Source: Bacteroidota bacterium
Lineage (GTDB): Bacteria > Bacteroidota > Bacteroidia > NS11-12g > UBA9320
Length of the DNA stretch: 64,000 bases
Reading direction: 5' to 3'
Assembly: GCA_002746305.1 (NCBI GenBank)
Contig: NVWV01000008.1
Location: forward strand, 125,353-189,352
The notes beneath the pieces were generated by a model, which saw only the letters and a list, made by a program, of their open reading frames with translations, had not been told where the DNA came from and searched no databases. A program made the position numbers and the translations under genes. This document shows positions 30,085-56,930 of the stretch, piece by piece. Position 1 is the stretch's first letter, and every line of letters starts with the position of its first letter.

Positions 30085-30085
30085 A

Positions 30086-33237: not shown

Positions 33238-33254
33238 GAATGCAAATTTAAGAA

Positions 33255-34472
33255 CTATTTACGTCTAAGGAACAATGATATTTTTCTAATAGTTGGTTGA
33301 TACATAAACATTCTCACTTTATCCATTAGGGATATTTTTTTTACAGGTATTTGGACAGATTTCAATATGTTAGCAATAGTATCAGAAGGCAACAGAGTAC
33401 CCTTTGGACTTAAGCAATTTCTGTATAAATATGTATCAAACTCTTTTTCATCTACTTCAGAAGCTTTAAATGACTTCACTTCTGATAGCAGTTCGTCAAA
33501 ATTTCGTGCAAGACGTACTACTACACCATCAATTTCTACATTATCAGTTTGAGATTCATTGTGAGGGTTATAATAGATTACTGGTATTTTAAAAAAAAGT
33601 GCTTCATGAATAAGTGAGCTAAATCTTGTAATTACCAAGCTAGAGTCTTTAAGTTGACTATGAATGCTTGATGCAGAACTAGATAAAACATTTTTAAATG
33701 CATCTAAGTTGCCCCTATCTCTAGGATGTTGAGAGATATTAAATGGGATATTTAACCCATCTAAAACATTGGATATATCAGACAGCCATGATTCTCTTAC
33801 CTCCTCATATATCCCATATGTAAAGTTGCAATTAATCAAAACACTATTTTTCTTATTTGAGCTTTCTTGTAGTAAGTGCTCATATCTAGGATTCCCTGTA
33901 ATAAATGATAGTTTGACATCTAACTTGCTCAAATACCATAATCCTTGTAAAAATACGGCATCAGAAAATTGCATTCGTCCCTTTGTACCAAAATCTATCA
34001 TAGACTCCTGTATACAAATAGTCGGCACATTAAGCTTTCTAGCCTTTAGTATTACATACTTCGCAAGCTTAGTCCAATCATTGAGAACTACTAAGATGTC
34101 AGGTTTGTATGCTTTTAATTTCGTCACAGAAAAAACCTCATAAGAAATACCCTCTTGGACTAGCTGAGTATCACTATTCTCCCGATCCATTTCTGGTATA
34201 AAAATTATAAATTCACTATCAGCAAATTTTGAAAGGATAGGCAGGACACTCTTCACCAATGTATCACTCTGAAGATAGAAGGCTATTTTATTTTGTCTTA
34301 CACTCTTAATATCATCTTCTATATGAATGGCCCAATTATAAGTAGGGCACAAATTTTCTATATCTTTAAAAGGAGCAAGTGTATTATTATTCTTTTCTAC
34401 AAATACAAGTTTATCGAATTGAACCGAGAGTAATGAAGTAGCACTTAGATTAGAATATTTTATCCCTTTCAC
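33255..34472 (-). CDS. hypothetical protein, possible GT-B/TagF-like transferase
   Basis: 405 aa. The C-terminal SSLIHEAL...PVIYYNP pattern resembles GT-B donor-binding halves. Weak. Confidence 0.35.
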   Translation of the reverse strand: MKGIKYSNLSATSLLSVQFDKLVFVEKNNNTLAPFKDIENLCPTYNWAIHIEDDIKSVRQNKIAFYLQSDTLVKSVLPILSKFADSEFIIFIPEMDRENSDTQLVQEGISYEVFSVTKLKAYKPDILVVLNDWTKLAKYVILKARKLNVPTICIQESMIDFGTKGRMQFSDAVFLQGLWYLSKLDVKLSFITGNPRYEHLLQESSNKKNSVLINCNFTYGIYEEVRESWLSDISNVLDGLNIPFNISQHPRDRGNLDAFKNVLSSSASSIHSQLKDSSLVITRFSSLIHEALFFKIPVIYYNPHNESQTDNVEIDGVVVRLARNFDELLSEVKSFKASEVDEKEFDTYLYRNCLSPKGTLLPSDTIANILKSVQIPVKKISLMDKVRMFMYQPTIRKISLFLRRK

Positions 34473-35473
34473 TCGTTCGAGATCTTATTCAAGATTTTTT
34501 TCCAAACCTCGTGTTGATTGTATTCCGTTTTTATTCTTTTCTGAATTGCCTGAATGTAAGGCAATTGCTTCTCAACATTATTCATATAATAAATACTTTT
34601 TGAAATATATTCATCTGGGTCCATTTCTAAAACTACTTCATTTTCATTATAAAAATCAAGCACGCCTTCATTATCCACCACACCAAATCTTCCTAATGAG
34701 AATACGGTCCAAAAACGATCCATAATACCTTTTTCTACTTTCCAAGAGGTTGCATGTATAATAGGACATAACCTTGATTTTTCAAGAAACTCAACGTGCT
34801 TACTTACTGAAACGGCACCTACTTTAGTGCCTCTACCCGCTAATATGGTGTTTTCACTCGCATCTAATACTGGTTGAAGATATCTCTCCCATTCCTTAAT
34901 ATTACCCCTAGTTGCTGTGCCCCATTTACTTCCTACAAAGGCTGCATCATATTCAAAACCGTTCATTATCGGCTCAGATTGCATAATCTTATCATAGGAC
35001 AATGTCATCGTCCCCCATGGTATCCAGAAAATTCTATCTGCATGTCTATTCACAATTTCAGATTTAACTGGAAACGTCTCTATATCAGATTTAGCTCCAA
35101 AAGCATAATATCGATATCCACTTTTAGCAAGATAATCCAACTTTTTATACTGAGGCCAATGCCAGTTTTTAAAGAACGTGAGTGGATCATCAGTCCAATC
35201 TCCTTCCGACTCTTTACTCGCATCAAATGAGGTTAATTTTTGGATTATAACACTATCTTTATGAGGCTTATATTTCTCAATCAACTCTATGCTATCAGGA
35301 GCATTCCAACATATAAAAATGGCAGGTTTTTTAAAATTTATTTTAGAAGCATTTATATGTTCTGCTTCATAGCCTAACTCATTAAAAGTAGTGGTCAAGT
35401 AATTCCAAGGCCAAAAATTAGTATGTTTCTTTTTGTAGAATGGTGGAATATAACCTAGGAGATAAACTTTCAT
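34469..35473 (-). CDS. hypothetical protein in glycan operon
   Basis: 334 aa, W-rich, no recognised motif. 4-nt overlap with the upstream gene. Confidence 0.35.
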   Translation of the reverse strand: MKVYLLGYIPPFYKKKHTNFWPWNYLTTTFNELGYEAEHINASKINFKKPAIFICWNAPDSIELIEKYKPHKDSVIIQKLTSFDASKESEGDWTDDPLTFFKNWHWPQYKKLDYLAKSGYRYYAFGAKSDIETFPVKSEIVNRHADRIFWIPWGTMTLSYDKIMQSEPIMNGFEYDAAFVGSKWGTATRGNIKEWERYLQPVLDASENTILAGRGTKVGAVSVSKHVEFLEKSRLCPIIHATSWKVEKGIMDRFWTVFSLGRFGVVDNEGVLDFYNENEVVLEMDPDEYISKSIYYMNNVEKQLPYIQAIQKRIKTEYNQHEVWKKILNKISNE

Positions 35474-36333
35474 TATTTACTTAACAAATTTAAAGTTTTT
35501 AAGAACCTATTGTTTCTTGAATCTACAGCGATAAAATTCCCCCATTCATTTTGTTTGATAGTAAATGGGTATTTTTCAATTCTTGAAAACGAATGTTTCA
35601 CACCATATCTAACGATTGGATCCCATATTGAGGCAAACACTTCATATCCCTCGCTAATCAATAAATCAACTATATCTTCCTTTGTATTTTCAGCCATTTT
35701 CCTATCTTCAAATTCAATTAATATTACTTCAGGGCTACATTTTTTAAAATTTAGACCTTTTAACACTTCATAATCTGCACCCTCTACATCTATTTTTAAA
35801 AACTGAACAGAGTCAATTTTTTTTTCTAGCAAAAAATCTGTGAGCGAAACAGTCTTAACAGTATCGGATTTTTGATGTTGTGGAGTAAAGTTAAGAGTTG
35901 AAGATATTCCTTTTGATTCAGGAGAAATAAAAAAATCTATAAAATTTCCGCTCTCACTTGTTACTGCTAAATTATGAAGTTTAAAATCACTAAACCTTCC
36001 TGTTAAAGAAATTAATTTTTCCGTCTTAATAGAGTCTTTATCTGGCTCAAATGCATGAACTTTCCAATTACCGTGAAGTAGAAATGGTAAAGAGCACTCT
36101 CCGAACATTGCTCCTACATCAAGCATAACTCCACCACTTTTCCCAATGTGTGAGAAAATCAATTTATTTTCATTTAAGTCACTTAATTCTGTTTCCCTAA
36201 ATTTCTGATTATCCCAATTAGCTGACTTTACATTGAACCACGATTTATAAACCCGTTCTTTAAAATACTGAGGATAGTCAAATCCCGATATATTGATAAT
36301 TTTTTCTCTTACAGATTTTGACAAAAATGACAT
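35473..36333 (-). CDS. FkbM-family methyltransferase
   Basis: MLDVGAMFGECSLPF...HAFEP SAM-binding pattern. 1-nt overlap. Confidence 0.5.
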   Translation of the reverse strand: MSFLSKSVREKIINISGFDYPQYFKERVYKSWFNVKSANWDNQKFRETELSDLNENKLIFSHIGKSGGVMLDVGAMFGECSLPFLLHGNWKVHAFEPDKDSIKTEKLISLTGRFSDFKLHNLAVTSESGNFIDFFISPESKGISSTLNFTPQHQKSDTVKTVSLTDFLLEKKIDSVQFLKIDVEGADYEVLKGLNFKKCSPEVILIEFEDRKMAENTKEDIVDLLISEGYEVFASIWDPIVRYGVKHSFSRIEKYPFTIKQNEWGNFIAVDSRNNRFLKTLNLLSK

Positions 36334-36481
36334 AAGTTAAACGAAAATAGTACAGAAACTGAGATATTCTTTGCAAAAGAATTTATAAACCATAAATATT
36401 TATATTCAAGCTCAATTCCCTGTTTAGACATTGTAATATCACCTTCTCAATTCAATACTTTTTTAGTTAAAATCCATATAT

Positions 36482-38974
36482 TTGTTGCAGATTATGACCA
36501 ATACTCAACTCTCTTTATTAAAAAATTATGTAAACATACAATCTGCTAAGAATTGGAGCATTTTACTGCTCATACTATTTTCTTTTACTAGTAAATCAAG
36601 TTTTAGTCAAGTAGATTCTATATTTTGGTTTGCAGCTCCAGAAATCTCAGAACACACTTCTAATTTTGATAAGCCAATAATTATTAGGATCACTACTTTA
36701 GATAAATCAGCTAAAGTAGTCATTACCCAGCCTGCCAACCCTTCTTTTGTTCAAATCACGGTAAACATTCCTGCATCATCAACTAAATCAGTTGATTTAA
36801 CATCATACATTAACAATATAGAAACAAGGCCTTCAAATGAGATTTTGAAGACAGGATTACTTATAAAATCAGACAATTACATCACTGCTTACTACGAGGT
36901 AGCTAGTCAACAATGTAATTGCAACCCTGAGATTTTTAGTTTAAAAGGCGGCAATGCACTAGGTGAATTATTCTATATTCCTACTCAAATGACTTATGAA
37001 AATTCAACTAGGTATTCACCACAAGCTACGAGCTCATTTGACATAGTTTCCACACAAGATAATAACCAAATTACTATCACTCCAAACAAGTCAATAGTTG
37101 GTCATGCTAAAGATATTTCATTTAGCATTACACTAAACAAAGGAGAAACATATTCAGCTGTTGCTACATCAAGATTAGGATCAGGGCATTTAGCAGGGTC
37201 AAAGGTCCAAGCAACCTATCCAATAGCAATTACAGTCAAAGATGATTTACTAGAGGGACTAGGACAGTGCAGAGATGTAGCAGGCGATCAAATAGTTTCA
37301 ATAAATAATATTGGCCTTGAATATATTGCCGTAAAAGGATTTCTCGATGGAAATAGAGAGTTAGCCACAATAGTAGCTACAGAACCCAATACGAAAATTT
37401 TTATAGGTTCCTCAGTTGTACCAAGTGCTATTCTAAATGAGGGCCAGTACTATGAGTTTAATCTTACGCAAAATTCAACTTATATTCGGAGTTCTAAACC
37501 CATATACGTATGGCATACTTCTGGTTTCGGTTGCGAATTAGCTGGAGCGATATTACCTCCTGTCAATTGCACTGGAACATTTTCCACATCAGTGGTCAGG
37601 TCTACACCAGATCAGTTAGGAATAGTACTGTTTACAAGTAAAGCAGGAATCAATTCATTTACAAACAATAGAGGTTTGACAATAAACTCTACAACCTTTA
37701 CATCTGTCCCTGGCACAAATAACCGATGGTATGCTGCGAGGATTGAGCTCACACAATCTCAAATTTCAGCCGGAGAAGTTCTTAATATTTCAAATCCCTC
37801 TCACCTATTTCATTTGGGATTTATAAACGGTGTTGCAGGTTCAGGAACTCGTTATGGCTATTTTTCTGATTATCGAAAAGTAACAGGTACAATTGAAAAT
37901 ATCATTGAGTGTAATCAATCTGAAATAGTGTTACAACACAAAAAGGGGAATTTAGATCAATGGAGTACTGGGAGTACTATTGATTCAATAATGCTCCAAA
38001 AAAGCGGCACATATTGGGTAAATTATACTATAAATAATTGCCCAGCATCTGACACCTTTCACGTGAGCATAACCAAAAACAATAGTCTTAATTTTATTGA
38101 TACAGTTCTTTGTAAAGGGGAAGTCCTAAAGCTTGATTTAACAAATAGCGAATTACTGTTAGACTCAAATAAATTGCAGGTAATAGACAATAAAATAGTT
38201 GCAGAAGGATTCTATTTTAGAACGGTTAAGAATTGTCCCAACGTAGATTCTTTCTACGTCTACCAATCAAAAATTGATTTAGATTTAGGTCCGGATAGCA
38301 CCTTCTGCGACAGCATAGAATTGGTCCTAAGTCTTTCCGACTTTGTCTCATACCAGTGGTCTACGGGTTCCGATTCTTCAAGTACAGTATTAATATCTGA
38401 AGGCACATTCTCAGTAATCGTAGAAGATGAATTCTCTTGTAAAGAGTCAGACACAATCAAAATCATAAAAGGAGTAGTGCCTAAAGTAAACTTGGGTCAG
38501 GACACCACCTTATGTAAAAGTTCAACAGCTTTTCTTGATGCTGGACATTTTGCGAAATATCAATGGAGCAATGGTTCAAATAAAAGATATTCTCCACTAA
38601 ATCAGTTTGGCGAAATTTGGGTTATGGTAACAAATGATGATGGATGCTTAGCTGCTGACACAATATTAATTTCCGAGTCTACCAAGACAAATTTTGATGA
38701 ACTATTAATTCCTAATTCTTTTAGTCCAGACCAAAATAATTTGAACGAGAATTTTCCTTTTTATAAATCAATAATTGAGGTTGAAGATTTTACTTTAAAA
38801 ATTTATAACCTATGGGGTCAACAAATTTTTGAAAGTCATTCCCCCTTAAATAATTGGAATGGCACTTTTCAAAATGAACCATCTGCACTTGGAACATACA
38901 TTTATACAATTAGTTGGAAAGATTGCAGCAATAGAATTAAAAACAAAAAAGGAGCATTCCACTTACTTAGATAA
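36482..38974 (+). CDS. large surface protein with T9SS type-B (gliding-motility-associated, CHU_C) C-terminal domain
   Basis: C-terminal LLIPNSFSPDQNNLNENF...IYNLWGQQIF...WNGTF...GTYIYTISW matches the type-B CTD. Ig-like repeats (DTxLCxG...). Confidence 0.65.
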   Translation: MLQIMTNTQLSLLKNYVNIQSAKNWSILLLILFSFTSKSSFSQVDSIFWFAAPEISEHTSNFDKPIIIRITTLDKSAKVVITQPANPSFVQITVNIPASSTKSVDLTSYINNIETRPSNEILKTGLLIKSDNYITAYYEVASQQCNCNPEIFSLKGGNALGELFYIPTQMTYENSTRYSPQATSSFDIVSTQDNNQITITPNKSIVGHAKDISFSITLNKGETYSAVATSRLGSGHLAGSKVQATYPIAITVKDDLLEGLGQCRDVAGDQIVSINNIGLEYIAVKGFLDGNRELATIVATEPNTKIFIGSSVVPSAILNEGQYYEFNLTQNSTYIRSSKPIYVWHTSGFGCELAGAILPPVNCTGTFSTSVVRSTPDQLGIVLFTSKAGINSFTNNRGLTINSTTFTSVPGTNNRWYAARIELTQSQISAGEVLNISNPSHLFHLGFINGVAGSGTRYGYFSDYRKVTGTIENIIECNQSEIVLQHKKGNLDQWSTGSTIDSIMLQKSGTYWVNYTINNCPASDTFHVSITKNNSLNFIDTVLCKGEVLKLDLTNSELLLDSNKLQVIDNKIVAEGFYFRTVKNCPNVDSFYVYQSKIDLDLGPDSTFCDSIELVLSLSDFVSYQWSTGSDSSSTVLISEGTFSVIVEDEFSCKESDTIKIIKGVVPKVNLGQDTTLCKSSTAFLDAGHFAKYQWSNGSNKRYSPLNQFGEIWVMVTNDDGCLAADTILISESTKTNFDELLIPNSFSPDQNNLNENFPFYKSIIEVEDFTLKIYNLWGQQIFESHSPLNNWNGTFQNEPSALGTYIYTISWKDCSNRIKNKKGAFHLLR

Positions 38975-39131
38975 AACAACTTCTGACATTTATTTAAGAC
39001 TTCACTTTCAAAAATTAACTCCTTGTTTTTAAGTACCTCTTTGATTAAACTAGAGTTATTTAATCATGTATATTTTATTAGCATCCAGAATTAATAATAA
39101 TCATCGTTCCTAAGAATTAAAATATTCAGAA

Positions 39132-39938
39132 CTAAAATAGCTGTGAAAACTTAAGGATTATCCGCTCAAAATATAAACGACTAAGGGACCAAGATCTAAC
39201 TACACCCATTTTAAAGTCTTTAATCGTTAGAAAAGGAAAAACCCTATTGGTTAACCTTGAATTCTTACTACCTGAATACACTTCAAAATCCAGACCATTC
39301 TTTAAGGAAATAGCCATTTTTATCCAAGCCAAAAAATGTCCATCTCCAAATGGTTTACTATACACAGTACCTTTCCCAAAATAATCCGGTCTGAAATGGT
39401 TCAAATCATTGTCTTCTGACGAAACATACTCATTACCAGTTATCTTGACACCCTTAAGTTTTTTCTCTTCATAATTTGCATCACAACCTAGCACAAGGAC
39501 ACGTTTATACCCAAGCAAATAAAGGACCTGCAAACTACATACACTTACATCACCAAAGTACCCCATATCTTCAAAGGAAACATTGGCTTTCATTCCTTTA
39601 ATAAGTTCATTAGTTGTAATAAACGTCACTTTATCAGATTTCACAATGTGTTCTCTTGTAGAAAAACATGAGTGATTCCAGTCTTCTGTACCATCTACAT
39701 CCCTAATAAAAAAACGCTTTATTTTCGAGTGTGTTATTAATCTATTCACATCTTCGTAAATATTCTCTAAAACACGAATATCAATAATCATATAATAGGT
39801 TGGATCAAACCCCCAATCTTCATATGCGATGTAAGCTCTGTTAAATGAAATTGTAATATCATTTTTCAAAGCAGCAACATCTATCTCATTCAAACTAGGG
39901 CCATTACCTATTAAGTAGACCGTTTTATTATTATTCAT
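39132..39938 (-). CDS. CstII-like (GT42) sialyl/nonulosonate transferase family protein
   Basis: N-terminal VYLIGNGPSLNEIDVAALKNDITISFNRAYIAYED parallels C. jejuni Cst-II (IIAGNGPSLKEIDYSRLPNDFDVFRCNQFYFED). Confidence 0.5.
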   Translation of the reverse strand: MNNNKTVYLIGNGPSLNEIDVAALKNDITISFNRAYIAYEDWGFDPTYYMIIDIRVLENIYEDVNRLITHSKIKRFFIRDVDGTEDWNHSCFSTREHIVKSDKVTFITTNELIKGMKANVSFEDMGYFGDVSVCSLQVLYLLGYKRVLVLGCDANYEEKKLKGVKITGNEYVSSEDNDLNHFRPDYFGKGTVYSKPFGDGHFLAWIKMAISLKNGLDFEVYSGSKNSRLTNRVFPFLTIKDFKMGVVRSWSLSRLYFERIILKFSQLF

Positions 39939-39973: not shown

Positions 39974-40894
39974 ATGATTCTAAGTATCATTATATGCACG
40001 TACAATAGAGTAAGGTTACTACCATATTGTATCGACAGTATTTTCAATCAAAACTATGATAAAAACGATATTGAAATAATATTTATAGACAATAATTCTA
40101 CCGATGGGTCCGGAGATTATTTTAAAAATCTAATGGATAAAGACCCTCGGTTTACTTTTAAATATTTCTTGGAAACAAAACAAGGTCTTTCCTATGCTAG
40201 AAATAGAGGGATACAAGAATCTATAGGTAAATATGTCGCTTTTGTGGATGATGATGCTATTATGAAAGAGGATTATTTTCAAAAAATATCAGATTTCATA
40301 TATCAACACCCAAAGTGCCAGGCATTTGGAGGGATAATAAACGTACACTTCGAGTCCACTCCTCCAAGGTGGGAAAACAAATATATTAATACCATGTTTG
40401 GATATTACTACCGTGGTAATGAGTCATTTATCTATAAGAACAGTGACTACCCTAGAGGATCAAATATGATTTTTCTTAAAACACTTTTTGACGAAGTAGG
40501 CATCTTTAATCCCAAACTCGGCAGAATAAAAAGAGGACTACAAGGCAATGAAGAAAAGGACCTATTTCAGCGTATCTATGCAAAAAGACACATCGTAAGA
40601 TATGACCCTAATTTAATAGTAGATCATATTGCACCACCAGAACGCACTGAAATCTCATTTGTAAAGCGTCAAGCTACTGGTACAGGAAATTCTGAAAGAA
40701 TTAGAACACAAGAACTAGGCCTTTTTTATTACATAAAAGCTCTGATCTTAGAAAGTTTAAAATGGATAGCGACCTTTTTATTAGCAATATTGTATTTCTT
40801 TAAACTTACCCCAATGAAGGGTATAATTTTAATTCGTTTTAGGTACTGGATTAGTTCAGGTTTGGTAGGTAAAATAGGTGTTTCTGAAATTTAG
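39974..40894 (+). CDS. glycosyltransferase family 2
   Basis: LSIIICTYNRVRLL...IEIIFIDNNSTDGS...FVDDDA (DxD). Confidence 0.7.
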   Translation: MILSIIICTYNRVRLLPYCIDSIFNQNYDKNDIEIIFIDNNSTDGSGDYFKNLMDKDPRFTFKYFLETKQGLSYARNRGIQESIGKYVAFVDDDAIMKEDYFQKISDFIYQHPKCQAFGGIINVHFESTPPRWENKYINTMFGYYYRGNESFIYKNSDYPRGSNMIFLKTLFDEVGIFNPKLGRIKRGLQGNEEKDLFQRIYAKRHIVRYDPNLIVDHIAPPERTEISFVKRQATGTGNSERIRTQELGLFYYIKALILESLKWIATFLLAILYFFKLTPMKGIILIRFRYWISSGLVGKIGVSEI

Positions 40895-40970: not shown

Positions 40971-43460
40971 ATGAAACTGACATTTAATAAATATAAAAAA
41001 CATTTATTGGCTATTTTAGTATTTGCCGTACTAACTTATGCATATATGCCACCAGTATTAAGCGGGAAAGCAATTCAACAAGGTGATGTAGTTAACTTCA
41101 AAGGGTCTGTCTCTGAAACTGATGCATATTATAAAAAAGAAGGTAAAACTCCGCTCTGGACGAATGCTATTTTTGGAGGAATGCCCACCTATCAAATAAG
41201 CACGAAAGGGCATAGTAACCCTGTAAAGGTGCTTATGAAGCCCTCATTTCATCACCCATTCAACAAATTATTTATTGGCTTGATATGTGCATACATCATG
41301 TTTTTAGCTTTTAAAGTAGAGCATTGGTTGGCTATTATTGGAGCATTTGCATTTACATATACTACAGGAAATCTTATTTTCTTAGAAGCCGGACACAACA
41401 CAAAAATGCAAGCAATTGCATACGCTCCATTGGTCTTAGCCGGACTAAAATTCTTACTAAACAAAAGGTATCTTCTAGGCTCCAATATCCTTGCAGTAGG
41501 GATAGCCCTAGAGCTGGTATCAAATCATATTCAGATATCATTTTACCTAGCTATAATGGTAACGATTTGGATGATAGCCGAATTTATCACACACCTTAAA
41601 AACAAAGACCTCAGTTCCTACTTTAAAGTTGTTGGGATATCCTTGTTGTTAGCCTTGTTGGGCATTGCTATTAGTTCTCCAAATATTCTTTTAACAAAAG
41701 AATATTCAGAATCTACTATTCGTGGCCAGTCAGATTTAACTATTTCTAAGGGAGTCAGCGGAGTGCAGGTTAAAGAAAACAGCGGCAGCGGATTAGACTA
41801 TAACTACGCCTTTCAATGGAGCAATGGCTGGCAGGATGTAATGGCTATTATCATACCAAACTATGCTGGAAGTGGAGGAGTTGTTGACCTTGGTAAAAAT
41901 TCTGCTTTTGAAGGAAAACTAAATAAGAAAGCTATCAAAAATTTTCCGTTTGCATATTGGGGGGAACTTCCATTCACGGTGGGCCCTGTTTACCTTGGTG
42001 CGAGCGTATTTCTTCTTTTTATTCTGGCATTTATCTTTATTCGAGGCCCCATTAGATGGTGGATACTTATAGCTTTTATTTTATCTCTAGTTATGTCAAT
42101 GGGTAAGAATAATTTTGCTTGGTTCAATGATTTCCTATTCAATCACTTTCCACTTTATAATAAATTCAGAGTACCAAGTATGTCACTTACCCTTGGTCAA
42201 TGGTGTGTGCCTCTCCTTGCTATCGTAGGATTATCTCACTTTATAAAGAGTACAGATAAAGAGAGACTTCAAAAGAGTCTTAAATTTTCAGGTATAATAG
42301 TAGGTGCTTTTTTAGTTCTACTTACTTTCATGAGCAGTATGTTTACAGACTTTAGTCATAAAGTGACTGATCCAATAACTGGAAATGTCTTAAAAGATTT
42401 TGATAAAGATATATACGACCAATATAAAATAGAAACCTACTTGCTAGAAGAGGCAAGATCAGACCTTATTCAGTCTGATGGATTAAGATCCTTATTCTTT
42501 GCCGGGACAGTATTTTTGCTGTTATGGTTGTTCATTAAAAATAAAGTTAAAAAAGAGTATTTAATTCTGGGAATTGGTCTTGCTATATTGGTTGATTTAT
42601 GGTCTATTGACAAAAGATACTTAAACAATGAAGATTTTGTAAAGAAAAGAGTCTATGAAAAGAAGGCAACTCCTTCCGCAGCTGATCTAGCCATCCTAAC
42701 AGACACCAGTTATTATCGAGTTTTGGATGTGAGAACTTCTAATGTAATGTCTAATTCAAAGGCAGCATTGTTCCATAAGTCGATAGGAGGTTATCACCCA
42801 GCAAAGCTTAGAAGATACCAAGAACTTTACGATTGGCATATTGTTAATGATATAAGAAACAACAGTTACGAAAATAGTTCTGTTCTCAATATGCTTAATA
42901 CTAAATACATAATTGGGAAAGACCAAAAAGGGGCAGATTTATATAGGATAAATTCAAACAATCTAGGTCATGCGTGGTTTGTAAATAACATTAATACTTT
43001 AAAAAACGCAGATAGTGTAATTCTTGCTTTGGCTACGTTTAATCCAAAGTCTACAGCAATACTTGAAGCAACACAATCTGATGTTTCATCGAAACAGCTA
43101 GAAATTGATAGTTCGGCCTCTATTTCGTTAATAAGTTATCATCCAGATAAAATGATTTACAAATCGAATAGTATTCACTCTGGATTCGCAGTATTTTCAG
43201 AAATCTTTTATAAAGATGGATGGGTAGCTTCAATAAACGGGAATCCTGCTACCATAGAAAATGCCAACTTTGTTTTAAGAGGACTTTCATTACCTAAGGG
43301 AGAAAACGAGATAATCTTTAGTTTTGAGCCGAGAACTTATTCAATTAGTAGAGGTATAATGCTAGGAGGTAATACAATCTTGTATTTACTGCTAATTGGT
43401 TCATTATTCTTTTGGATTAAAAAAGAGTTCTTTACCAAAAGCAAAGAGGCTAGAGCATAG
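40971..43460 (+). CDS. YfhO-like large polytopic membrane protein (putative glycan/glycolipid transferase)
   Basis: 829 aa with a many-TM N-terminal half, a large extracytoplasmic C-terminal domain and a final TM. Confidence 0.45.
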   Translation: MKLTFNKYKKHLLAILVFAVLTYAYMPPVLSGKAIQQGDVVNFKGSVSETDAYYKKEGKTPLWTNAIFGGMPTYQISTKGHSNPVKVLMKPSFHHPFNKLFIGLICAYIMFLAFKVEHWLAIIGAFAFTYTTGNLIFLEAGHNTKMQAIAYAPLVLAGLKFLLNKRYLLGSNILAVGIALELVSNHIQISFYLAIMVTIWMIAEFITHLKNKDLSSYFKVVGISLLLALLGIAISSPNILLTKEYSESTIRGQSDLTISKGVSGVQVKENSGSGLDYNYAFQWSNGWQDVMAIIIPNYAGSGGVVDLGKNSAFEGKLNKKAIKNFPFAYWGELPFTVGPVYLGASVFLLFILAFIFIRGPIRWWILIAFILSLVMSMGKNNFAWFNDFLFNHFPLYNKFRVPSMSLTLGQWCVPLLAIVGLSHFIKSTDKERLQKSLKFSGIIVGAFLVLLTFMSSMFTDFSHKVTDPITGNVLKDFDKDIYDQYKIETYLLEEARSDLIQSDGLRSLFFAGTVFLLLWLFIKNKVKKEYLILGIGLAILVDLWSIDKRYLNNEDFVKKRVYEKKATPSAADLAILTDTSYYRVLDVRTSNVMSNSKAALFHKSIGGYHPAKLRRYQELYDWHIVNDIRNNSYENSSVLNMLNTKYIIGKDQKGADLYRINSNNLGHAWFVNNINTLKNADSVILALATFNPKSTAILEATQSDVSSKQLEIDSSASISLISYHPDKMIYKSNSIHSGFAVFSEIFYKDGWVASINGNPATIENANFVLRGLSLPKGENEIIFSFEPRTYSISRGIMLGGNTILYLLLIGSLFFWIKKEFFTKSKEARA

Positions 43461-44590
43461 TGCAATTATCCCAAATATACGGTCTTCAAAAAATCAAACA
43501 AAAGCTACTCGCTAATGTAAGGGACAATAGGTTACCACATGCCCAGCTATTCCTAGGACCTGAGGGGAGTGGTAAACTTGGATTAGCATTGGCTCTTACA
43601 CAATATTTATACTGCTCGAATAAATCTGAAACAGACTCTTGTGGAGAATGTAGCTCTTGTCGTAAAATAAGTTCTCATACTCATCCTGATGTTCATTTCA
43701 CATTTCCCACTGTTGTGAAATCATCTGGGAAGGAACCCGTGAGTAACGATTTTTTGGAAGCATGGAGAAAAGAATTACAAGAAAGCATATATTTCAATAC
43801 GTCCGATTGGATTAAGAACATTGCTGACGACGAAAACAAGAAACCCAATATAACACGTAAGGAGACCCGCGATATTATCTCAAAACTCTCGCTCAAACCC
43901 TATGAAGGTGAAGCTAAAACACTCATAATCTGGATGCCTGAGTATTTAGCAGGACAAAGCAATGCTTTGCTAAAACTGATTGAAGAACCACCTCAAAAAA
44001 CGTATTTTATATTAGTTGCCGAAAATTCAGATGCCTTGCTAGCTACAATAACAAGTAGAACACAATTGGTAAAAATACCGAAGTATACTGAAGAAGAAAC
44101 TATGGCATTTTTACAAGCCAAGTATTCATTAGATCCTCAAAAGGCCGAACAAATTGCATATTTAGCAGAAGGAAACTTTAGAAAAGCAATTGATTTAGTA
44201 GAAAGTGTAGAGGACAACTATTCTGAAATGTTTAGAGACTGGATGTTAGCATGTTATAGCAACAACCTCAAAACGGTAAGCTCTCTTGTAGACTCCATGC
44301 ATAAACTAGGAAGAGTACAATTGCAAATATTCTTGACCAATGGATTGTCAATACTTCGAGAAAGCTTACTTTATAAAACCATTGATAACTACACTATAAA
44401 AGCAGAAAAAGACCAACAAGATTTTATTCGGAAATTTTCAGGTACGTTAAATGCTGCGTGTATTGAAAAGAGTTATGAGCAAATCAATGAAGTAATTTAT
44501 CATATTCAGCGAAATGCAAATGCTAAGATTGCCATTTTTAACCTTTCTCTAAACTTGAGGTATAACTTTGTACGTAAGAAAGATGCTTAA
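43460..44590 (+). CDS. holB: DNA polymerase III subunit delta'
   Basis: HAQLFLGPEGSGKLGLA. Zinc module CGECSSC. SHTHPDVHF. Confidence 0.75.
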   Translation: MQLSQIYGLQKIKQKLLANVRDNRLPHAQLFLGPEGSGKLGLALALTQYLYCSNKSETDSCGECSSCRKISSHTHPDVHFTFPTVVKSSGKEPVSNDFLEAWRKELQESIYFNTSDWIKNIADDENKKPNITRKETRDIISKLSLKPYEGEAKTLIIWMPEYLAGQSNALLKLIEEPPQKTYFILVAENSDALLATITSRTQLVKIPKYTEEETMAFLQAKYSLDPQKAEQIAYLAEGNFRKAIDLVESVEDNYSEMFRDWMLACYSNNLKTVSSLVDSMHKLGRVQLQIFLTNGLSILRESLLYKTIDNYTIKAEKDQQDFIRKFSGTLNAACIEKSYEQINEVIYHIQRNANAKIAIFNLSLNLRYNFVRKKDA

Positions 44591-45218
44591 TTCATTTCAA
44601 AAAATACTAATTCTGGCACCTCATACTGATGATGGGGAATTTGGCTGTGGTGCAAGCATCAACAAATGGGTGGAGGAAGGAAAAGACGTCTATTATGCTA
44701 CATTCTCTGCTTGCAAGCAATCCGTTTTACCGCAGTTTCCAGAAGACATTCTAATCACGGAAGTTAAGGCAGCAACTCTTACTTTGGGAATTAAACCTTC
44801 GAACCTAATTATGTACGATTATGAGGTTCGTACATTCACGTACCACCGACAAGAAATACTAGATGACCTAATACAATTAAGAGAGACTATAGCTCCAGAT
44901 TTAGTTCTCATGCCCTCTCTTAATGATATACATCAGGACCATAAAACAATTGCAGAAGAAGGACTCCGAGCATTTAAGTTTGGCAGCATTCTTTGCTACG
45001 AAATGCCCTGGAATAACTTAGTATTTAATACAACATGTTTTAATACACTAGAAGCACGGCATATAAATAAGAAAATAGAAGCACTCAAAGAGTATAAATC
45101 TCAGGCTCATAGACCTTATTGTAATCCGGAATTTATTAAAGGTTTATCTTTAAGTCGAGGAGTGCAAATCAATGCTGATTTTGCTGAAGTTTTCGAGGTA
45201 GTACGATGGAAATTATAA
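44568..45218 (+). CDS. PIG-L/LmbE family N-acetylglucosaminyl deacetylase
   Basis: ILILAPHTDDGEFGCGASI (AHPDDE-type motif). HQDH. 23-nt overlap with holB. Confidence 0.65.
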   Translation: MYVRKMLNSFQKILILAPHTDDGEFGCGASINKWVEEGKDVYYATFSACKQSVLPQFPEDILITEVKAATLTLGIKPSNLIMYDYEVRTFTYHRQEILDDLIQLRETIAPDLVLMPSLNDIHQDHKTIAEEGLRAFKFGSILCYEMPWNNLVFNTTCFNTLEARHINKKIEALKEYKSQAHRPYCNPEFIKGLSLSRGVQINADFAEVFEVVRWKL

Positions 45219-46249
45219 AAAGAGTTCTTGTAACTGGAGGCGGTGCTCCTGGTGCTCCTGGAATTCTTAATGCTCTTAAACAAAGTAACTCATCCACTGA
45301 AATCTTTTCTTGTGATATACAAGAAAATACAGCTGGAAAGATCTTAGCTGACAGCTATTTTACAGTGCCTTCTGGTGATACAGAACAGTATATACCCGAA
45401 ATACTACAGAAGTGCATTGAGCATAAAATATCTACTATCCTACCCATTACGACTAAGGAACTCTTACCCCTTTCAAAAAACAAAAAACTATTTATCCAAA
45501 ACAACATCAACGTTCTTGTATCTGAATTTGATGAACTCAGTGTTGCCAATGATAAAGGTAAACTTTACGCACATTTGGATAAGCACCATATTGCAACCCC
45601 ATCATTCTGTGTGGTAAATAACCACTTAGAATATATAGAAGCTGCAAAACCCTATATCAACTCGGACACAACGTTTATTGTCAAACCTTGCTTTGCAAAT
45701 GGAAGTAGAGGTTTTAGAATTGTTGGTTCGGATATAAACGAAGGGGATTTACTTTTTAATCACAAACCAAACTCAACCCATATATCCAGCAGTAAACTGA
45801 ATTCAATATTATCAAGTTACAGATTTCCTCAGTTGTTGGTTTCAGAATACCTGCCTGGGAGAGAATATACCGTAGATTGTCTCATTCAAAATGGTGATGT
45901 TAAATTCATCATTCCGCGTTTAAGAGAAAAAATGAATAATGGAATAAGCGTTGAGGGAACCATTGAGAAGAATGATGAGGTTATTGATTACTGCTACAAA
46001 ATATTACAAAGCTTGAGACTCGATGGACCAATAGGAATTCAAGTAAAATATAGTATTAAAGACAAACCACTTATTGTTGAAATAAATCCTAGAATTCAGG
46101 GCACTACTGTTGCCTTAATGGGAGCAGGAGTGAACATACCTGCACTCTGTACAGATGTACAGCACTTGCAAAATTTCACAAAACCAAATGAATTCCCAAT
46201 CAAGTGGGGAACTAAATTTATTAGACACTACAACGAGCTTTATTTCTAA
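45206..46249 (+). CDS. ATP-grasp domain protein
   Basis: Rossmann-like pre-domain (VLVTGGGAPGAPGIL). Central KPCFANGSRGFRIV and C-terminal EINPRIQG are ATP-grasp-like. 13-nt overlap with the PIG-L gene. Confidence 0.5.
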   Translation: MEIIKRVLVTGGGAPGAPGILNALKQSNSSTEIFSCDIQENTAGKILADSYFTVPSGDTEQYIPEILQKCIEHKISTILPITTKELLPLSKNKKLFIQNNINVLVSEFDELSVANDKGKLYAHLDKHHIATPSFCVVNNHLEYIEAAKPYINSDTTFIVKPCFANGSRGFRIVGSDINEGDLLFNHKPNSTHISSSKLNSILSSYRFPQLLVSEYLPGREYTVDCLIQNGDVKFIIPRLREKMNNGISVEGTIEKNDEVIDYCYKILQSLRLDGPIGIQVKYSIKDKPLIVEINPRIQGTTVALMGAGVNIPALCTDVQHLQNFTKPNEFPIKWGTKFIRHYNELYF

Positions 46250-46368
46250 GCCTTTTACCCTTTTTTGGATATATTTGACAATTGTATAAATAATCATTTA
46301 TACATATTAGGAGCAGTATAGATAATACGCTCTTTACCAATGAACTAAAACCAAGAAGAGATATAAAT

Positions 46369-47709
46369 ATGGGATGTGGAAGTTGCGGAAATAACAACGG
46401 AAGTCATAGCCCCGGTTGCAAGAGCAACGGTGGGTGTAGCACTGGAAGTTGTAATAAGTTAAACGTATACAACTGGTTAACGGACATGGTCTTGCCAGAA
46501 GACTATACGCCATTTAATATAGTAGAGGTTAGATTTAAGGGCAGTAAAAAACAATTTTATAAGAATATAAATAACTTAGAGCTATTTACTGGAGACAAAG
46601 TAATAGTGGATTCAGACATCGGTTATGATGTTGGTGAAGTATCTTTAAGTGGGGAACTCGTAAAACTACATCTGAAAAAATATGGAGTTGATGAGAACAA
46701 CTCTGAAATGAGAACAATAAAGAGTAAAGCCACTGAACAGCAAATAGCCAAGTATCAAGAATTCAAAGATGCCGAACAAAAGACATTGGAAGAAGCTCGG
46801 ACTATTGCCCTTCAACTTCAGTTAAAAATGAAAATAAGTGATATTGAATACCAAGGAGATGGTAAAAAAGTCACTTTTTACTATACCTCTGAGGGTCGCG
46901 TAGATTTTAGAGACCTTATTCGTCGATATGCATCTTCTTTCAAAAGCAGAATTCAAATGCTTCAAGTTAGCTATAGGGAAGAAGCTTCAAGACTTGGAGG
47001 AATCGGATCTTGTGGTAGGGAGTTGTGCTGTAGTACATGGCTTACAGATTACAAAGTTGTAAGTATGAGTGCTCCTAAAACACAAAACCTGTCCATTAAT
47101 ATGCTTAAGCTAAGTGGACAATGTGGTAGGCTTAAATGCTGCTTAAACTATGAACTTGAACTGTACAGTGAAAAACTAAAAGAATTCCCTTCTGAAAAGG
47201 TGAAATTAAAAACTGAATCTGGTCTGGCAAGTCTTCGCAAAATTGATATTCTCAAAGGAACCGCTTGGTACTGCTATGAAAATAGCTTTGACTGGATTCC
47301 TGTAAACATTGACCGAGTAAACGAAATCATTGCTGAGAACAAAAAAGGTAAGACTCCTATGACATTAAGCGATACAGCCAAAGGTGCTGAAATAGCGTTT
47401 AAGACTTTAGAGTTTAAAGACGATTTGTTAGGTGATACGGACCTCACCCGAATGGATAATAAAAACAGAAAATCTAAAGGAAAGGGTGGCAATAGAAAAC
47501 CTCAAAACAGAAATAGCAGCAACCGTAAAAAAATACCCAATAACAAAAAGGGTGACAGGAGCGGAGGGAATAGGAATGACCCAAATAAGCCTAAAAATGA
47601 GAATAAGCCCAAGGTAGAAAAAAGCACTCAGTCAAAGAAAAAGTCAAACTACAATCCCAATCGTAGAAACAACAGAAAAGATGAATCTAAACCCGATGAC
47701 CAAAATTAA
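46369..47709 (+). CDS. PSP1 C-terminal domain protein with Cys-rich N-terminus and K/N/R-rich tail
   Basis: PSP1 core (FYYTSEGRVDFRDLIR...GSCGRELCCSTWL...GRLKCCLNYE). N-terminal MGCGSCGNNNGSHSPGCKSNGGCSTGSC. ~90-aa basic low-complexity C-terminus. Confidence 0.6.
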   Translation: MGCGSCGNNNGSHSPGCKSNGGCSTGSCNKLNVYNWLTDMVLPEDYTPFNIVEVRFKGSKKQFYKNINNLELFTGDKVIVDSDIGYDVGEVSLSGELVKLHLKKYGVDENNSEMRTIKSKATEQQIAKYQEFKDAEQKTLEEARTIALQLQLKMKISDIEYQGDGKKVTFYYTSEGRVDFRDLIRRYASSFKSRIQMLQVSYREEASRLGGIGSCGRELCCSTWLTDYKVVSMSAPKTQNLSINMLKLSGQCGRLKCCLNYELELYSEKLKEFPSEKVKLKTESGLASLRKIDILKGTAWYCYENSFDWIPVNIDRVNEIIAENKKGKTPMTLSDTAKGAEIAFKTLEFKDDLLGDTDLTRMDNKNRKSKGKGGNRKPQNRNSSNRKKIPNNKKGDRSGGNRNDPNKPKNENKPKVEKSTQSKKKSNYNPNRRNNRKDESKPDDQN

Positions 47710-47727
47710 CCTTTAGGCCAAAAGATA

Positions 47728-48516
47728 ATGCAGGAAAGACATTCCAATAGAAAACAATATTTTGATGAGCAAGCACTGACTACAAAAAAATATGTAATCC
47801 CATACCTTAACACATTAAAGAAAATTGACAAAAACACCTCCGTTTTAGAGATTGGTTGTGGCGAAGCAGGAAATCTAAAACCTTTCTTAGACTTGGGTTG
47901 CCAAAGAGTTGTAGGCATAGATCTCTCATTAGGAAGAATTGAAAACGGAAGAAAATTCTTTAGTGACCATCCCAATCTAGCAAATCTCGAACTCATTGCA
48001 GAAAACATATATGACTCTGTCATCTCAGAGGAATTTGACATTATCATATCTCGGGATGTGATAGAACATATTCCAAACCAAACTAAGTTCATGGCCAGAT
48101 GTCGAGACTTTATCAAACCAGACGGACTCTATTTTATTGGTTTTCCCCCTTGGTACAATCCTTTTGGTGGACACCAGCAGCTTTTAAAAAGCAAACTACT
48201 CTCTAAGCTACCGTACTTTCATATTGTCCCTAGACCTATTTACAAAAGAATACTTAAACTCTTTGGTGAAACTGATGGACAAATAAAAGGAATGCTGGAA
48301 ATTTACGATACCCGTATCACCATCGATCGACTAAATAGGATTCTAAAAGAGAATAACTATACAGTTCTTAAAAAAACAGATTATGTTATCAATCCCAACT
48401 ATGAAACCAAATTCGGTCTGAAACCTAGAAAGCAAATTGGTCTAATAAGTGCCATACCCTTTATACGAAATTTTTTCACTACAGCCTCGTATTACGTAGT
48501 ACAAGCAAATAAATAG
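47728..48516 (+). CDS. class I SAM-dependent methyltransferase
   Basis: Motif I VLEIGCGEAGN. Motif II IIISRDVIEH. Confidence 0.6.
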   Translation: MQERHSNRKQYFDEQALTTKKYVIPYLNTLKKIDKNTSVLEIGCGEAGNLKPFLDLGCQRVVGIDLSLGRIENGRKFFSDHPNLANLELIAENIYDSVISEEFDIIISRDVIEHIPNQTKFMARCRDFIKPDGLYFIGFPPWYNPFGGHQQLLKSKLLSKLPYFHIVPRPIYKRILKLFGETDGQIKGMLEIYDTRITIDRLNRILKENNYTVLKKTDYVINPNYETKFGLKPRKQIGLISAIPFIRNFFTTASYYVVQANK

Positions 48517-55335: not shown

Positions 55336-55888
55336 TTTAGAAGATTTTATTAAAAAAAACAAAGGTGAGTTTGATTCTAAAACCCCTAGTCCAGATCTCT
55401 GGAACCGCATTAAGGAGGAACGTGAAGAAGAAAAAGTCATCCCTATAGCTACGGGCAAACGGGCTGGAATACCAATGCAAATAATGAGAGTGGCTGCAAG
55501 CTTTTTGATACTTGCATTAGCAGCTTTTGGTGGATATCAGTTACTGAATGATAGCAACAACGAAATGGATAATGAAGTTACTCTTGAGACTTCTAACCTT
55601 CCTACTGAATTAGTAGAATTGGACCAATACTACGAAAGTCAAGTAACCGTTTCATTAACTCAAATCAATCTAATTATATCTGATACTTCCATTCTAAATG
55701 AAGTAAAATCTGAATTGAAAATGCTAGATGACGAGAAGGGAAAACTATTCTCTGAATATGGAAAAGAAATGGATGACCAACAGATTGTTGAAGCCTTAAT
55801 GAATACGTATAGAATGAAACTTCAAGTTTTGGAAAATATATTATCACTTTTAAACGAAAATGAAAATGAAGCAGATTTATCAATATAG
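55328..55888 (+). CDS. putative anti-sigma factor (single-pass membrane protein)
   Basis: ATGGATAA overlap with the sigma gene. One TM (VAASFLILALAAFGGY). Coiled-coil C-terminus. Confidence 0.4.
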   Translation: MDNLEDFIKKNKGEFDSKTPSPDLWNRIKEEREEEKVIPIATGKRAGIPMQIMRVAASFLILALAAFGGYQLLNDSNNEMDNEVTLETSNLPTELVELDQYYESQVTVSLTQINLIISDTSILNEVKSELKMLDDEKGKLFSEYGKEMDDQQIVEALMNTYRMKLQVLENILSLLNENENEADLSI

Positions 55889-56930
55889 TCTAGTATGTAT
55901 CCTACTAATTAGTGTACCTACTCTTTGCTCTGCTCAGTTCAAAGACTCAAAAACTTACACCAAAGCCATTAGTCTAAGAGAGGGAGGACGACTGTCTTTA
56001 AGAAATAAACACGGGAATATAAATATTACGAGTTGGGACAAGGATTCCGTAGTGCTAACCGCAACCATAAGTGGTCGGTCTAAATCTTTAGCTAAACTGC
56101 AAGAGAGTATTGCTAAGACGAATATTAATTTTAGACAATCAGGAAACTCAGTGGATATAGCAACAGTCATATCGGAAACCTCTTTTAGCAAAGGATTGAA
56201 TCAAATTATGTCGGCAGTTGGAGTGGAGAATGAAATCACAATCAACTATGAAATAAAAGTGCCTAGGGGAATGCGAATGGCTATTACCAATAAATATGGA
56301 GATATATACCTTGACAATCATACTGGAAAGCTTGACATTGAACTGAGCCATGGTAATTTGAGAGCCAATTCACTCAAAGAAGTAAACCATCTGCGTTCAA
56401 ACTTTGGGAATATATATATCATTGAGGTTGAAAAACTAAAAGGGAATCTCCTTTTCAGTCAATTGGAAATAGAGAAAGCAGATATTTTAGACCTCTCATC
56501 CAAAAGCACAGAATATGAATTTGAAACCGTTAATCAATTGAGAATATCCTCATCCAACGACAAAATAGATATAGACGAGGTGGGAGATTTCAATCTGGTA
56601 GGGTCTCTTAGCAAAGTATCTATTGATGACTTGCTAAATTCCTCTTCCATTAGTTTAAAATACGGTAAGGTCCGCATTAAAAAAGTACACAAAGAGGTGT
56701 GTTCATTTATGGCAACTACTACACGCTGCACTTTAGAAATAGGTCTAGAAAAGGGTAGTAATAACAAAAAAATCAGTGGTATGATTGGCGAGGGGCAGAT
56801 TCAGAATGTAAATCCTGACCTCAAAATAATTTCTAAAAGTCTCAATTTGGATGCACATATAGGTGATGTCAATGCTGCGAACTGCACCTATCACTTCACT
56901 TGTCAAAAAACTAAAATTTATTTCAAGTAA
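55860..56930 (+). CDS. DUF4097-like beta-solenoid protein (putative adhesin / LiaF-YvlB-like)
   Basis: Signal peptide. Repeated GNI/GDI/GKL...I units (HGNINITSWD, GDIYLDNHTGKLDIELSHGNL, NFGNIYIIEVE). Confidence 0.45.
   Translation: MKMKQIYQYSLVCILLISVPTLCSAQFKDSKTYTKAISLREGGRLSLRNKHGNINITSWDKDSVVLTATISGRSKSLAKLQESIAKTNINFRQSGNSVDIATVISETSFSKGLNQIMSAVGVENEITINYEIKVPRGMRMAITNKYGDIYLDNHTGKLDIELSHGNLRANSLKEVNHLRSNFGNIYIIEVEKLKGNLLFSQLEIEKADILDLSSKSTEYEFETVNQLRISSSNDKIDIDEVGDFNLVGSLSKVSIDDLLNSSSISLKYGKVRIKKVHKEVCSFMATTTRCTLEIGLEKGSNNKKISGMIGEGQIQNVNPDLKIISKSLNLDAHIGDVNAANCTYHFTCQKTKIYFK

Follow-up and report, generated by a model that had tools for sequence, protein, structure and literature searches.

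Removal of an N-acetyl group from an amino sugar and acylation of the freed amine are combined in the well-known enzyme pairs LpxC/LpxD, MshB/MshC and BshB/BshC. Within Bacteroidota, the nearest functional precedent is the Wbp/Vim pathway of Porphyromonas gingivalis and Tannerella forsythia, in which di-N-acetyl glucuronic acid made by WbpA/B/E/D loses its 2-N-acetyl group through VimE (CE4) and receives serine or glycine from VimA (FemAB-like/GNAT-type), WbpS (AsnB-like) amidates the uronate and VimF, a family 4 glycosyltransferase (GT4), transfers the sugar, the free amine of this linking sugar becoming amide-bonded to type IX secretion system (T9SS) cargo (PMC7468200; PMC13086638). Prevotella intermedia carries an N-alanyl deoxyhexose and lacks both VimA and VimE; its aminoacylation pathway was stated in 2025 to be unknown, and several pathways were considered possible in the phylum (PMC11969387). 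Likewise, the anchoring mechanism of Cytophaga hutchinsonii was said to need further study (PMC11611037). Here, these systems are compared with a locus in a 64,000-nt window (the whole stretch of DNA that was analysed, contig NVWV01000008.1, positions 125,353 to 189,352, of the Bacteroidota bacterium assembly GCA_002746305.1). Five genes lie on its + strand at 43.4-48.5 kb, in the order holB, PIG-L/LmbE deacetylase (hereafter PIG-L), ATP-grasp ligase, RicT/PSP1 and class I S-adenosylmethionine (SAM) methyltransferase. The PIG-L/ATP-grasp pair is an uncharacterised version of the familiar 'deacetylate then re-acylate' theme, both the ligase family and the pairing being uncharacterised; in the library searched, no paper was found joining ATP-grasp with PIG-L/LmbE, or ATP-grasp with type IX secretion glycosylation.

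The reading favoured here, which has about an even chance of being right, is that the pair performs N-deacetylation of an N-acetylhexosamine (HexNAc) precursor and then its ATP-dependent N-re-acylation, feeding a surface glycan. Judging by its family and motifs, PIG-L would strip the N-acetyl group from a GlcNAc-type residue of a nucleotide-linked or polyprenol-linked precursor at the cytoplasmic face. The ATP-grasp enzyme would then turn a small carboxylic acid (an amino acid is likeliest) into its acyl-phosphate and ligate it to the freed sugar amine, giving an N-acyl or N-aminoacyl hexosamine; this second step is proposed because of the gene coupling, the displacement of the partner in sister lineages and the fold neighbours of the ligase, all described below. 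Both proteins are predicted to be soluble and cytoplasmic. Finally, as the gene context suggests, the neighbouring glycosyltransferases and a YfhO-type enzyme would build the modified sugar into a lipopolysaccharide (LPS) O-chain, a capsule or exopolysaccharide (EPS), or a protein-linked glycan. The first-pass annotation of this DNA had already supposed a deacetylase that exposes an amine for acylation by an ATP-dependent ligase, and this core logic is supported by motifs, fold neighbours, coupling and partner displacement. Its five open reading frames (ORFs) on the + strand and their family assignments also hold at the same coordinates in Pfam and NCBIfam comparisons. The two genes of the pair are as follows.

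44583..45218, + strand: predicted PIG-L/LmbE-family zinc de-N-acetylase (PF02585); its ORF opens at a TTG at 44568
45206..46249, + strand: predicted ATP-grasp carboxylate-amine ligase of 347 amino acids (aa) with a PylC-like N-domain (PF15632, PF02655, PylC-like_N)

By Pfam, motifs and modelled fold, PIG-L is placed in the LmbE/PIG-L de-N-acetylase superfamily. It matches PF02585 with 57.8 bits (cut-off 28.2) over profile positions 1-128 of 129, and its motifs H14-T-D16-D17 and H117-Q-D119-H120 align to HADD and HPDH of Bacillus cereus BC1534 (2ixd). These zinc/catalytic motifs are at least 95% conserved in 28 aligned sequences (the window protein and 27 from the loci) and invariant in alignment A2. 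In Foldseek comparisons, its AlphaFold2 model (pLDDT 88.9) reached TM-scores of about 0.8, at about 20% identity, to BshB/BC1534, diacetylchitobiose deacetylase and LnmX, and was somewhat less close to TT1542, teicoplanin Orf2* and MshB (0.65-0.76); with 0.75-0.81 across BC1534, BshB, diacetylchitobiose deacetylase, LnmX and TT1542, no single LmbE relative is preferred. A hydropathy scan of PIG-L found no transmembrane segment. The family is large, with at least 7,971 matches and identities still at 66-70% at rank 120.

The ligase likewise belongs to its assigned superfamily, with domain models above their gathering scores and intact ATP-grasp motifs. Among characterised proteins, those nearest to it in structure are PylC, BacD, L-amino-acid ligases, PurD, PurT and Ddl, enzymes of a kind that join small carboxylates to amines; PurD puts glycine onto a sugar amine. 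The first-pass annotation had named a housekeeping paralogy with PurK, CarB or biotin carboxylase as what would undo its proposal, and such a paralogue was rejected: CarB models give 17-19 bits against cut-offs of 599-1027, and the protein has 347 aa and no extra domains. It also scores 148.7 bits, below the cut-off of 218, on PRK12767 'carbamoyl phosphate synthase-like protein' (NF009402), and no PF14305 (TupA-like) domain was among its Pfam matches at E <= 0.01. The window protein is identical to COA58_11815, annotated in a 'Bacteroidetes bacterium' metagenome-assembled genome (MAG). In a pattern scan that took one genome per species, relatives turned up in 465 of 185,579 species genomes, and the best 80 are nearly all labelled Bacteroidota, with three MAG records bearing another or no phylum label; the family is widespread in Bacteroidota and forms 279 clusters at 50% identity (E <= 1e-30). 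Two loci labelled as Burkholderiales and Agrobacterium MAGs (L034, L035) share ATP-grasp-RecQ-GT4 synteny with three Bacteroidia loci (L021, L032, L055), which makes them probably mis-binned Bacteroidota contigs.

The best available evidence that the ATP-grasp enzyme N-acylates the amine freed by PIG-L, with ATP and a free acid in place of an acyl thioester, comes from comparing gene orders around the deacetylase, and it points to this chemistry by displacement. Three PIG-L relatives of 66-70% identity on long contigs were examined (L088, L089, L090). In two of them (L089, 9001-10532; L090, 9001-10527), the PIG-L gene is followed, in the position of the ATP-grasp gene, by one for a hexapeptide-repeat protein of about 295 aa, with a 4-nt overlap in L089. 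These partners pass the LpxD-family model NF002060 (216.5 and 211.8 bits, cut-off 207) and fall under the true-LpxD equivalog cut-off (215.5 and 200.9 against 242.5 bits), and both pairs lie inside capsule/EPS-type clusters. In a neighbour-joining tree, the PIG-Ls of L088-L090 are nested among the ATP-grasp-linked ones: that of L090 is sister to the clade of L001, L002 and L060, and those of L088 and L089 stand beside the window super-clade. Thus, judging by these sequences, an orthologous deacetylase has interchangeable 3' partners, one of which is a recognisable predicted glucosamine N-acyltransferase, and since that LpxD-family protein replaces the ATP-grasp enzyme, the slot 3' of the deacetylase appears to serve N-acylation of the glucosamine amine. 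The pair of L089 and L090 is a second uncharacterised 'deacetylate then re-acylate' combination in its own right.

The genes that flank the pair in the window are the following.

39974..40894, + strand: family 2 glycosyltransferase (GT2; PF00535, 108.6 bits) with one C-terminal hydrophobic region
40971..43460, + strand: YfhO-like polytopic membrane protein (PF09586), a putative GT-C-type extracytoplasmic glycosyltransferase
43460..44590, + strand: holB, DNA polymerase III delta-prime (PF13177, 141 bits; TIGR00678, 166.7 bits)
46250..46368, no strand: intergenic gap of 119 nt, a likely transcription-unit boundary before ricT/PSP1 on weak evidence from the sequence
46369..47709, + strand: RicT/PSP1, YaaT-like (NF041131, 232.9 bits against a cut-off of 70)
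47728..48516, + strand: class I SAM-dependent methyltransferase (matches to Methyltransf_11/23/12/25)

A 13-nt overlap between the PIG-L and ATP-grasp genes, as given in the first-pass annotation, runs from the ATG at 45206 to the TAA ending at 45218 and is shared by 17 of 25 related loci. The 23-nt overlap reported for holB and PIG-L stands only for the TTG start at 44568; with the in-frame ATG at 44583 it shrinks to 8 nt, and the protein has 211 aa, its orthologues having 209-213. YfhO and holB overlap by 1 nt, so that, together with the downstream overlaps, YfhO, holB, PIG-L and ATP-grasp form an unbroken string, and the 119-nt gap before ricT is the first real gap after YfhO. This gap holds a single TAnnTTTG motif (46270-46277), a motif not enriched in the window; a sigma-70 promoter scan of the window stayed below shuffled expectation, and the + strand after ATP-grasp showed no terminator-like site. 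On the evenly weighted explanation favoured here, the PIG-L and ATP-grasp genes are a translationally coupled two-enzyme module.

This coupling extends well beyond the window. A PIG-L gene lies within 2 kb of the ATP-grasp gene, usually immediately 5', in about 33 of 84 loci from several clades. In the window clade (ATP-grasp identity of at least 56%), the order YfhO-holB-PIG-L-ATP-grasp-PSP1-methyltransferase-recR is kept. The holB-PSP1 pairing, described as conserved in the first-pass annotation, is indeed so in related Bacteroidota, the two genes being adjacent in L019, L024, L083 and L085; its splitting by the pair persists across the window clade (L003, L006-L009, L012-L015), and this interrupted arrangement is inherited, not a chance pattern. 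Being wedged between holB and PSP1 fails, all the same, as the defining trait that it was taken for, as sister lineages carry the pair upstream of holB or YfhO: the order is GT2-YfhO-PIG-L-ATP-grasp-holB-PSP1-recR in L019 and L085, PIG-L-ATP-grasp-YfhO(-holB) in L010 and L016, and GT2-PIG-L-ATP-grasp-GT4-YfhO-holB-PSP1 in L024, with which L083 agrees from ATP-grasp onward (this locus is cut at the ATP-grasp gene, so that only the ligase is visible). holB thus stands downstream of the pair itself in two loci (L019, L085) and of YfhO in three (L010, L024, L083). Relatives that keep holB-PSP1 and lose the pair, which were to speak against the first-pass proposal, were not encountered among the loci examined: L019, L024 and L085, those with adjacent holB-PSP1 that are complete enough to judge, all retain the relocated pair nearby. 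No other gene accompanies PIG-L as constantly across clades as YfhO does: at least 16 loci from several clades have a YfhO orthologue of 31-57% identity no more than 10 kb away from the pair. GT2 orthologues are directly upstream of YfhO in L003, L019 and L085, in line with the window, where GT2 is the first gene of the string GT2-YfhO-(holB)-PIG-L-ATP-grasp. Since the pair shifts position with GT2 and YfhO in sister lineages, it belongs to the glycan genes, and holB is merely embedded among them.

More distant relatives (43-46% identity) carry the pair with the same 13-nt overlap in L001, the cultured isolate Flavisolibacter ginsenosidimutans, and in L002 and L060. There it is found directly 3' of a triad of GFO oxidoreductase, small LbH acetyltransferase and DegT aminotransferase genes, which match general family models only, and before several GT4 genes; these surroundings are of sugar-nucleotide enzymes without YfhO. 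Further recurrent neighbours are a GT4 of 415-435 aa, an AsnB-like glutamine amidotransferase, a UDP-GlcNAc 2-epimerase and a HAD hydrolase of about 200 aa. Collectively, the context is steadily one of glycan assembly, whether through the GFO/DegT/LbH triad with its GT4s, the AsnB-like amidotransferase, the UDP-GlcNAc 2-epimerase, the GT4 or YfhO. Similarly, a 13-kb surface-glycan cluster lies directly upstream in the window (27844-39938). It encodes a Wzx-like MatE protein, an SDR, a D-2-hydroxyacid dehydrogenase, a CMP-sugar-type cytidylyltransferase, a 'cyclase' family protein, a GT2, a GT1-like protein, an FkbM methyltransferase, T9SS cargo with a type B C-terminal domain (CTD) and an MptE-like/DUF115 (Maf-like) protein. 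The cytidylyltransferase, the dehydrogenase, the SDR, the 'cyclase' protein, the FkbM methyltransferase and the Maf-like protein together suggest a sugar of the ulosonic or nonulosonic-acid type. Its ORF at 33255-34472 (405 aa) has no Pfam match, and neither do two others in the window, at 24040-25323 (- strand, 427 aa) and 55860-56930 (+ strand, 356 aa).

Several observations weigh against deacetylation and re-acylation by the pair. The activities and substrates of both steps are predictions from sequence. A tblastn search found no Wbp homologues in the window, and since Wbp-like genes are missing and the GT2 is not of the GtrB/DPMS type, the sugar might be modified at either the nucleotide-linked or the polyprenol-linked level. 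PIG-L is much better conserved than the ligase, at 80-92% identity against 58-61% in the same genomes. In L088, PIG-L has no acylating partner and stands beside GT4-YfhO, so free GlcN may sometimes be the end product. Conversely, the ATP-grasp gene lacks an adjacent PIG-L gene, and has a non-glycan context, in about 29 of the loci compared, which form a derived Chitinophagaceae clade, and it also lacks one in L086 and L087; the ligase is therefore not strictly dependent on this deacetylase. Finally, P0383, an ATP-grasp fusion protein, is encoded beside a UDP-sugar 6-dehydrogenase, which fits amidation of a uronic acid. As Flavisolibacter genomes also hold a PIG-L-linked copy (L001, L060), the Chitinophagaceae ATP-grasps look like paralogues or transfers with a different role. 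Their loci (among them L020, L023, L026-L028, L030, L037, L052, L053, L056 and L063) share a conserved neighbourhood with an enolase-superfamily (dipeptide-epimerase-like) epimerase, an outer-membrane beta-barrel protein, a UbiD-like decarboxylase, the ATP-grasp enzyme, TraB/GumN and ndk, as well as a DHH phosphoesterase, FKBP and folP. P0383 itself is a metagenomic protein of 591 aa (L093, 1648-3423; L094, 1364-3139) whose ATP-grasp part, residues 239-575, follows a 238-aa N-domain. This domain was rejected as a Rosetta-stone link to PIG-L: it is not PIG-L and has no Pfam, NCBIfam or PDB sequence match. By eye, and unconfirmed, its RHDVD, GHSIGLH, FHRP and LLVHP motifs look CE4/NodB-like; a cis-prenyltransferase is another neighbour.

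Among the alternatives, the main one, possible but doubtful, is that the ATP-grasp enzyme works on a (HexNAc) uronic acid, activating its C-6 carboxylate and linking it to an amine or amino acid, and that PIG-L independently frees an amine on the same or a neighbouring sugar. The HAD hydrolase found 3' of ATP-grasp in 11 loci would suit such amidation, as it recalls Cj1438/Cj1435, where phosphorylated amines are used and then dephosphorylated. This phosphatase occurs in other clades only and is absent from the window, and was rejected as a universal third component. The surroundings of the pair in L001, L002 and L060 are Wbp-like, and the Wbp pathway classically yields a di-N-acetyl uronic acid (PMC7468200), yet the AsnB-like amidotransferases, which would use that very carboxyl, co-occur with the pair in four loci (L010, L031, L054, L058), and this co-occurrence argues modestly that the ATP-grasp enzyme is not directed at it. 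ATP-grasps of polysaccharide loci are generally predicted to put amino acids on polymers (PMC12632600), and P0383 comes immediately after its UDP-sugar 6-dehydrogenase; against this, the window ligase lacks PF14305, the annotated parts of the window show no UDP-sugar dehydrogenase, and an LpxD-family N-acyltransferase standing in the same position speaks for amine chemistry. Moreover, uronate amidation leaves the tight coupling to a deacetylase unexplained.

It is still less probable that the pair serves a lipid-anchored route resembling that of glycosylphosphatidylinositol (GPI), in which GlcNAc, once placed on a membrane lipid or polyprenol phosphate by a glycosyltransferase, is deacetylated by PIG-L on the cytoplasmic face and acylated by the ATP-grasp enzyme, and is transferred or extended outside by YfhO after flipping. 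Eukaryotic PIG-L acts on GlcNAc-phosphatidylinositol, and NaxD/LgmC act on undecaprenyl-P-HexNAc. GT4 or GT2, YfhO and PIG-L recur together across clades, even with the lone PIG-L of L088; GT4 with PIG-L parallels PIG-A/PIG-L, MshA/MshB and BshA/BshB, although the co-travelling GT4 reaches only 20 bits on the MshA model, and GT2 with a deacetylase and a GT-C enzyme follows the logic of lipid A aminosugar addition. The window GT2, however, has PglI-, GalT1- and chondroitin-/heparosan-synthase-type GT2s as its nearest solved relatives in a PDB sequence search and a single hydrophobic segment (residues 254-287) in place of two transmembrane helices, and was therefore rejected as a GtrB/ArnC/DPMS-type undecaprenyl-phosphate sugar synthase. 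The YfhO-like protein is polytopic, with about eight separate hydrophobic regions in a crude hydropathy scan and a large non-membrane C-terminal part, as such a transferase might be; its PF09586 match (30.5 bits, cut-off 28.5) is marginal and confined to the C-terminal 70 residues, its orthologues have precomputed PF09586 matches, and a sequence search of the PDB found no solved homologue. Also at odds with the lipid route are the YfhO-free sugar-nucleotide settings of L001, L002 and L060 and the lack of a membrane segment in PIG-L.

The product favoured in the first-pass annotation, a soluble low-molecular-weight thiol or amino-sugar conjugate like bacillithiol or mycothiol with an ATP-grasp enzyme replacing the Cys ligase, now appears very improbable. 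The generic GT4/PIG-L/ligase logic would fit it, some loci have GT4s and a HAD phosphatase near the pair, PIG-L resembles BshB in fold as much as it does any other LmbE enzyme, and some automatic source annotations of PIG-L orthologues read 'N-acetylglucosamine malate deacetylase 1'. Membership of the BshB/MshB groups was nevertheless rejected on equivalog cut-offs and gene context: PIG-L scores 51.4 bits against 182.5 for BshB1 (TIGR04001) and 28.0 against 195.25 for BshB2 (TIGR04000), no bshA-, bshC- or mshC-like gene is found near the pair, and no bshC-like gene occurs in the window or in about 90 loci. The conserved partners are extracytoplasmic-glycan genes, namely the GT-C-like YfhO, glycosyltransferases, polysaccharide clusters with flippases and Wbp-like enzymes, which a cytosolic redox buffer would not need. 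Additionally, an LpxD-like transferase of the acyl carrier protein (ACP)/coenzyme A type, which would not install cysteine, can stand in for the acylating partner, and the patchy spread and frequent relocation of the pair are unlike those of a core redox cofactor.

The pair was also described as part of a three-gene cassette with the methyltransferase (METHYLTRANSFERASE), a grouping that does not survive comparison. This gene follows PSP1 only in the window clade and is missing between PSP1 and recR in L019, L024, L083 and L085. Its orthologues of 60-62% identity in Mariniphaga and another genome (L091, 7001-7783; L092, 7001-7789) occupy an unrelated conserved neighbourhood, with a Crp/Fnr-type regulator gene immediately upstream and genes for an M23 peptidase, DUF4292, a TPR protein, dUTPase and HemN/haem biosynthesis nearby. 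No PIG-L, ATP-grasp or glycosyltransferase gene is found beside them, and a fragment of a polysaccharide-exporter gene lies 7 kb away at the edge of L091. The methyltransferase is placed outside the module on account of these absences and of the other homes of its orthologues; it represents a well-conserved Bacteroidota family, with about 60% identity across orders. Going by gene order, then, the housekeeping gene holB, ricT/PSP1 and the methyltransferase are bystanders, not members of the module. RicT/PSP1 (46369-47709) has a Cys-rich N-terminus (MGCGSCGNNNGSHSPGCKSNGGCSTGSC) and a Lys/Asn/Arg-rich low-complexity C-terminal tail of about 90 residues beyond its RicT core (residues 76-294).

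If the pair acylates an amino sugar as proposed, its product could have a more specific destination. By analogy with the Wbp/Vim pathway, it might be a non-homologous replacement of VimE/VimA that makes a 2-N-aminoacyl linking sugar, the alpha-amine of which would be the nucleophile with which the PorU sortase anchors T9SS cargo to LPS; this is an unlikely outcome, and it would cover many environmental Bacteroidota without Vim enzymes. The organism has a T9SS, as the window encodes cargo with both a type A CTD (Por_Secre_tail, a leucine-rich repeat protein, 4917-6338) and a type B CTD (CHU_C, an IgGFc_binding-domain protein, 36482-38974, inside the glycan cluster), and these cargo genes make it possible, by analogy only, that the pair supplies the linking sugar. 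Elsewhere, the ATP-grasp genes of L059 and L044, which have no adjacent PIG-L, show a 'T9SS plug' gene at position -1, and that of L086, also without adjacent PIG-L, is flanked by two CHU_C cargo genes; given the many CTD genes per genome, these adjacencies may be chance. Were the replacement of VimE/VimA true, an LpxD-like partner or none would mark lineages with other glycan decorations.

N-acyl decorations of amino sugars set the antigenicity, charge, and phage and immune recognition of bacterial surfaces, and type IX secretion cargo of Bacteroidota is covalently anchored through an aminoacylated linking sugar. The pair is a concrete candidate for ATP-dependent acylation of amino sugars, with a relative in the cultured F. 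ginsenosidimutans. Should its product prove to be a common decoration of O-antigen or capsule, the annotation gained is useful and unsurprising; interest would be high only if the link to type IX secretion is true, as it would then address an explicitly open question.

Among known systems, LpxC/LpxD also deacetylate a UDP-GlcNAc derivative and then N-acylate the glucosamine amine; LpxC, however, is not of the LmbE fold, and LpxD uses acyl-ACP where the ligase of the pair would use ATP and a free acid. The bacillithiol and mycothiol pathways (BshA/BshB/BshC, MshA/MshB/MshC) resemble it in having an LmbE-family deacetylase acting on a GlcNAc conjugate, in the ATP-dependent amide then formed on the GlcN amine and in the GT4s that many loci of the pair also show, but their ligase is of another superfamily and their product is a soluble thiol, in contrast to the extracytoplasmic-glycan context seen here. 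For the ligase, the closest known ATP-grasp comparisons are PurD (GAR synthetase), PylC and the L-amino-acid ligases BacD, RizA and BL00235. Campylobacter jejuni Cj1438 is an ATP-grasp enzyme of a surface-polysaccharide cluster, proposed to add amino acids or amines to sugars. The TupA-like amidoligases (PF14305; WemR, TupA) are likewise ATP-grasps of surface-polysaccharide clusters, thought to add amino acids or amines (PMC12632600). Unlike the PF14305-free, deacetylase-paired window enzyme, TupA-like proteins and Cj1438 have uronate carboxyls as their proposed targets and no deacetylase as a partner. VimE/VimA of P. gingivalis and T. forsythia share with the pair both the phylum and the two steps, in which the 2-N-acetyl group comes off and an amino acid goes onto the amine, and some relatives of the pair adjoin similar neighbours, namely a triad resembling WbpB/E/D at the level of general family models, a WbpS-type AsnB-like amidotransferase and a VimF-like GT4. 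The enzymes differ, however: a CE4 esterase (VimE) and a FemAB-like/GNAT-type transferase (VimA) there, and here an LmbE-fold hydrolase with an ATP-grasp enzyme that would use a free acid and ATP. Being non-homologous to VimE and VimA, the pair is thus not a member of the Wbp/Vim pathway, and its likeness to that pathway is one of analogy.

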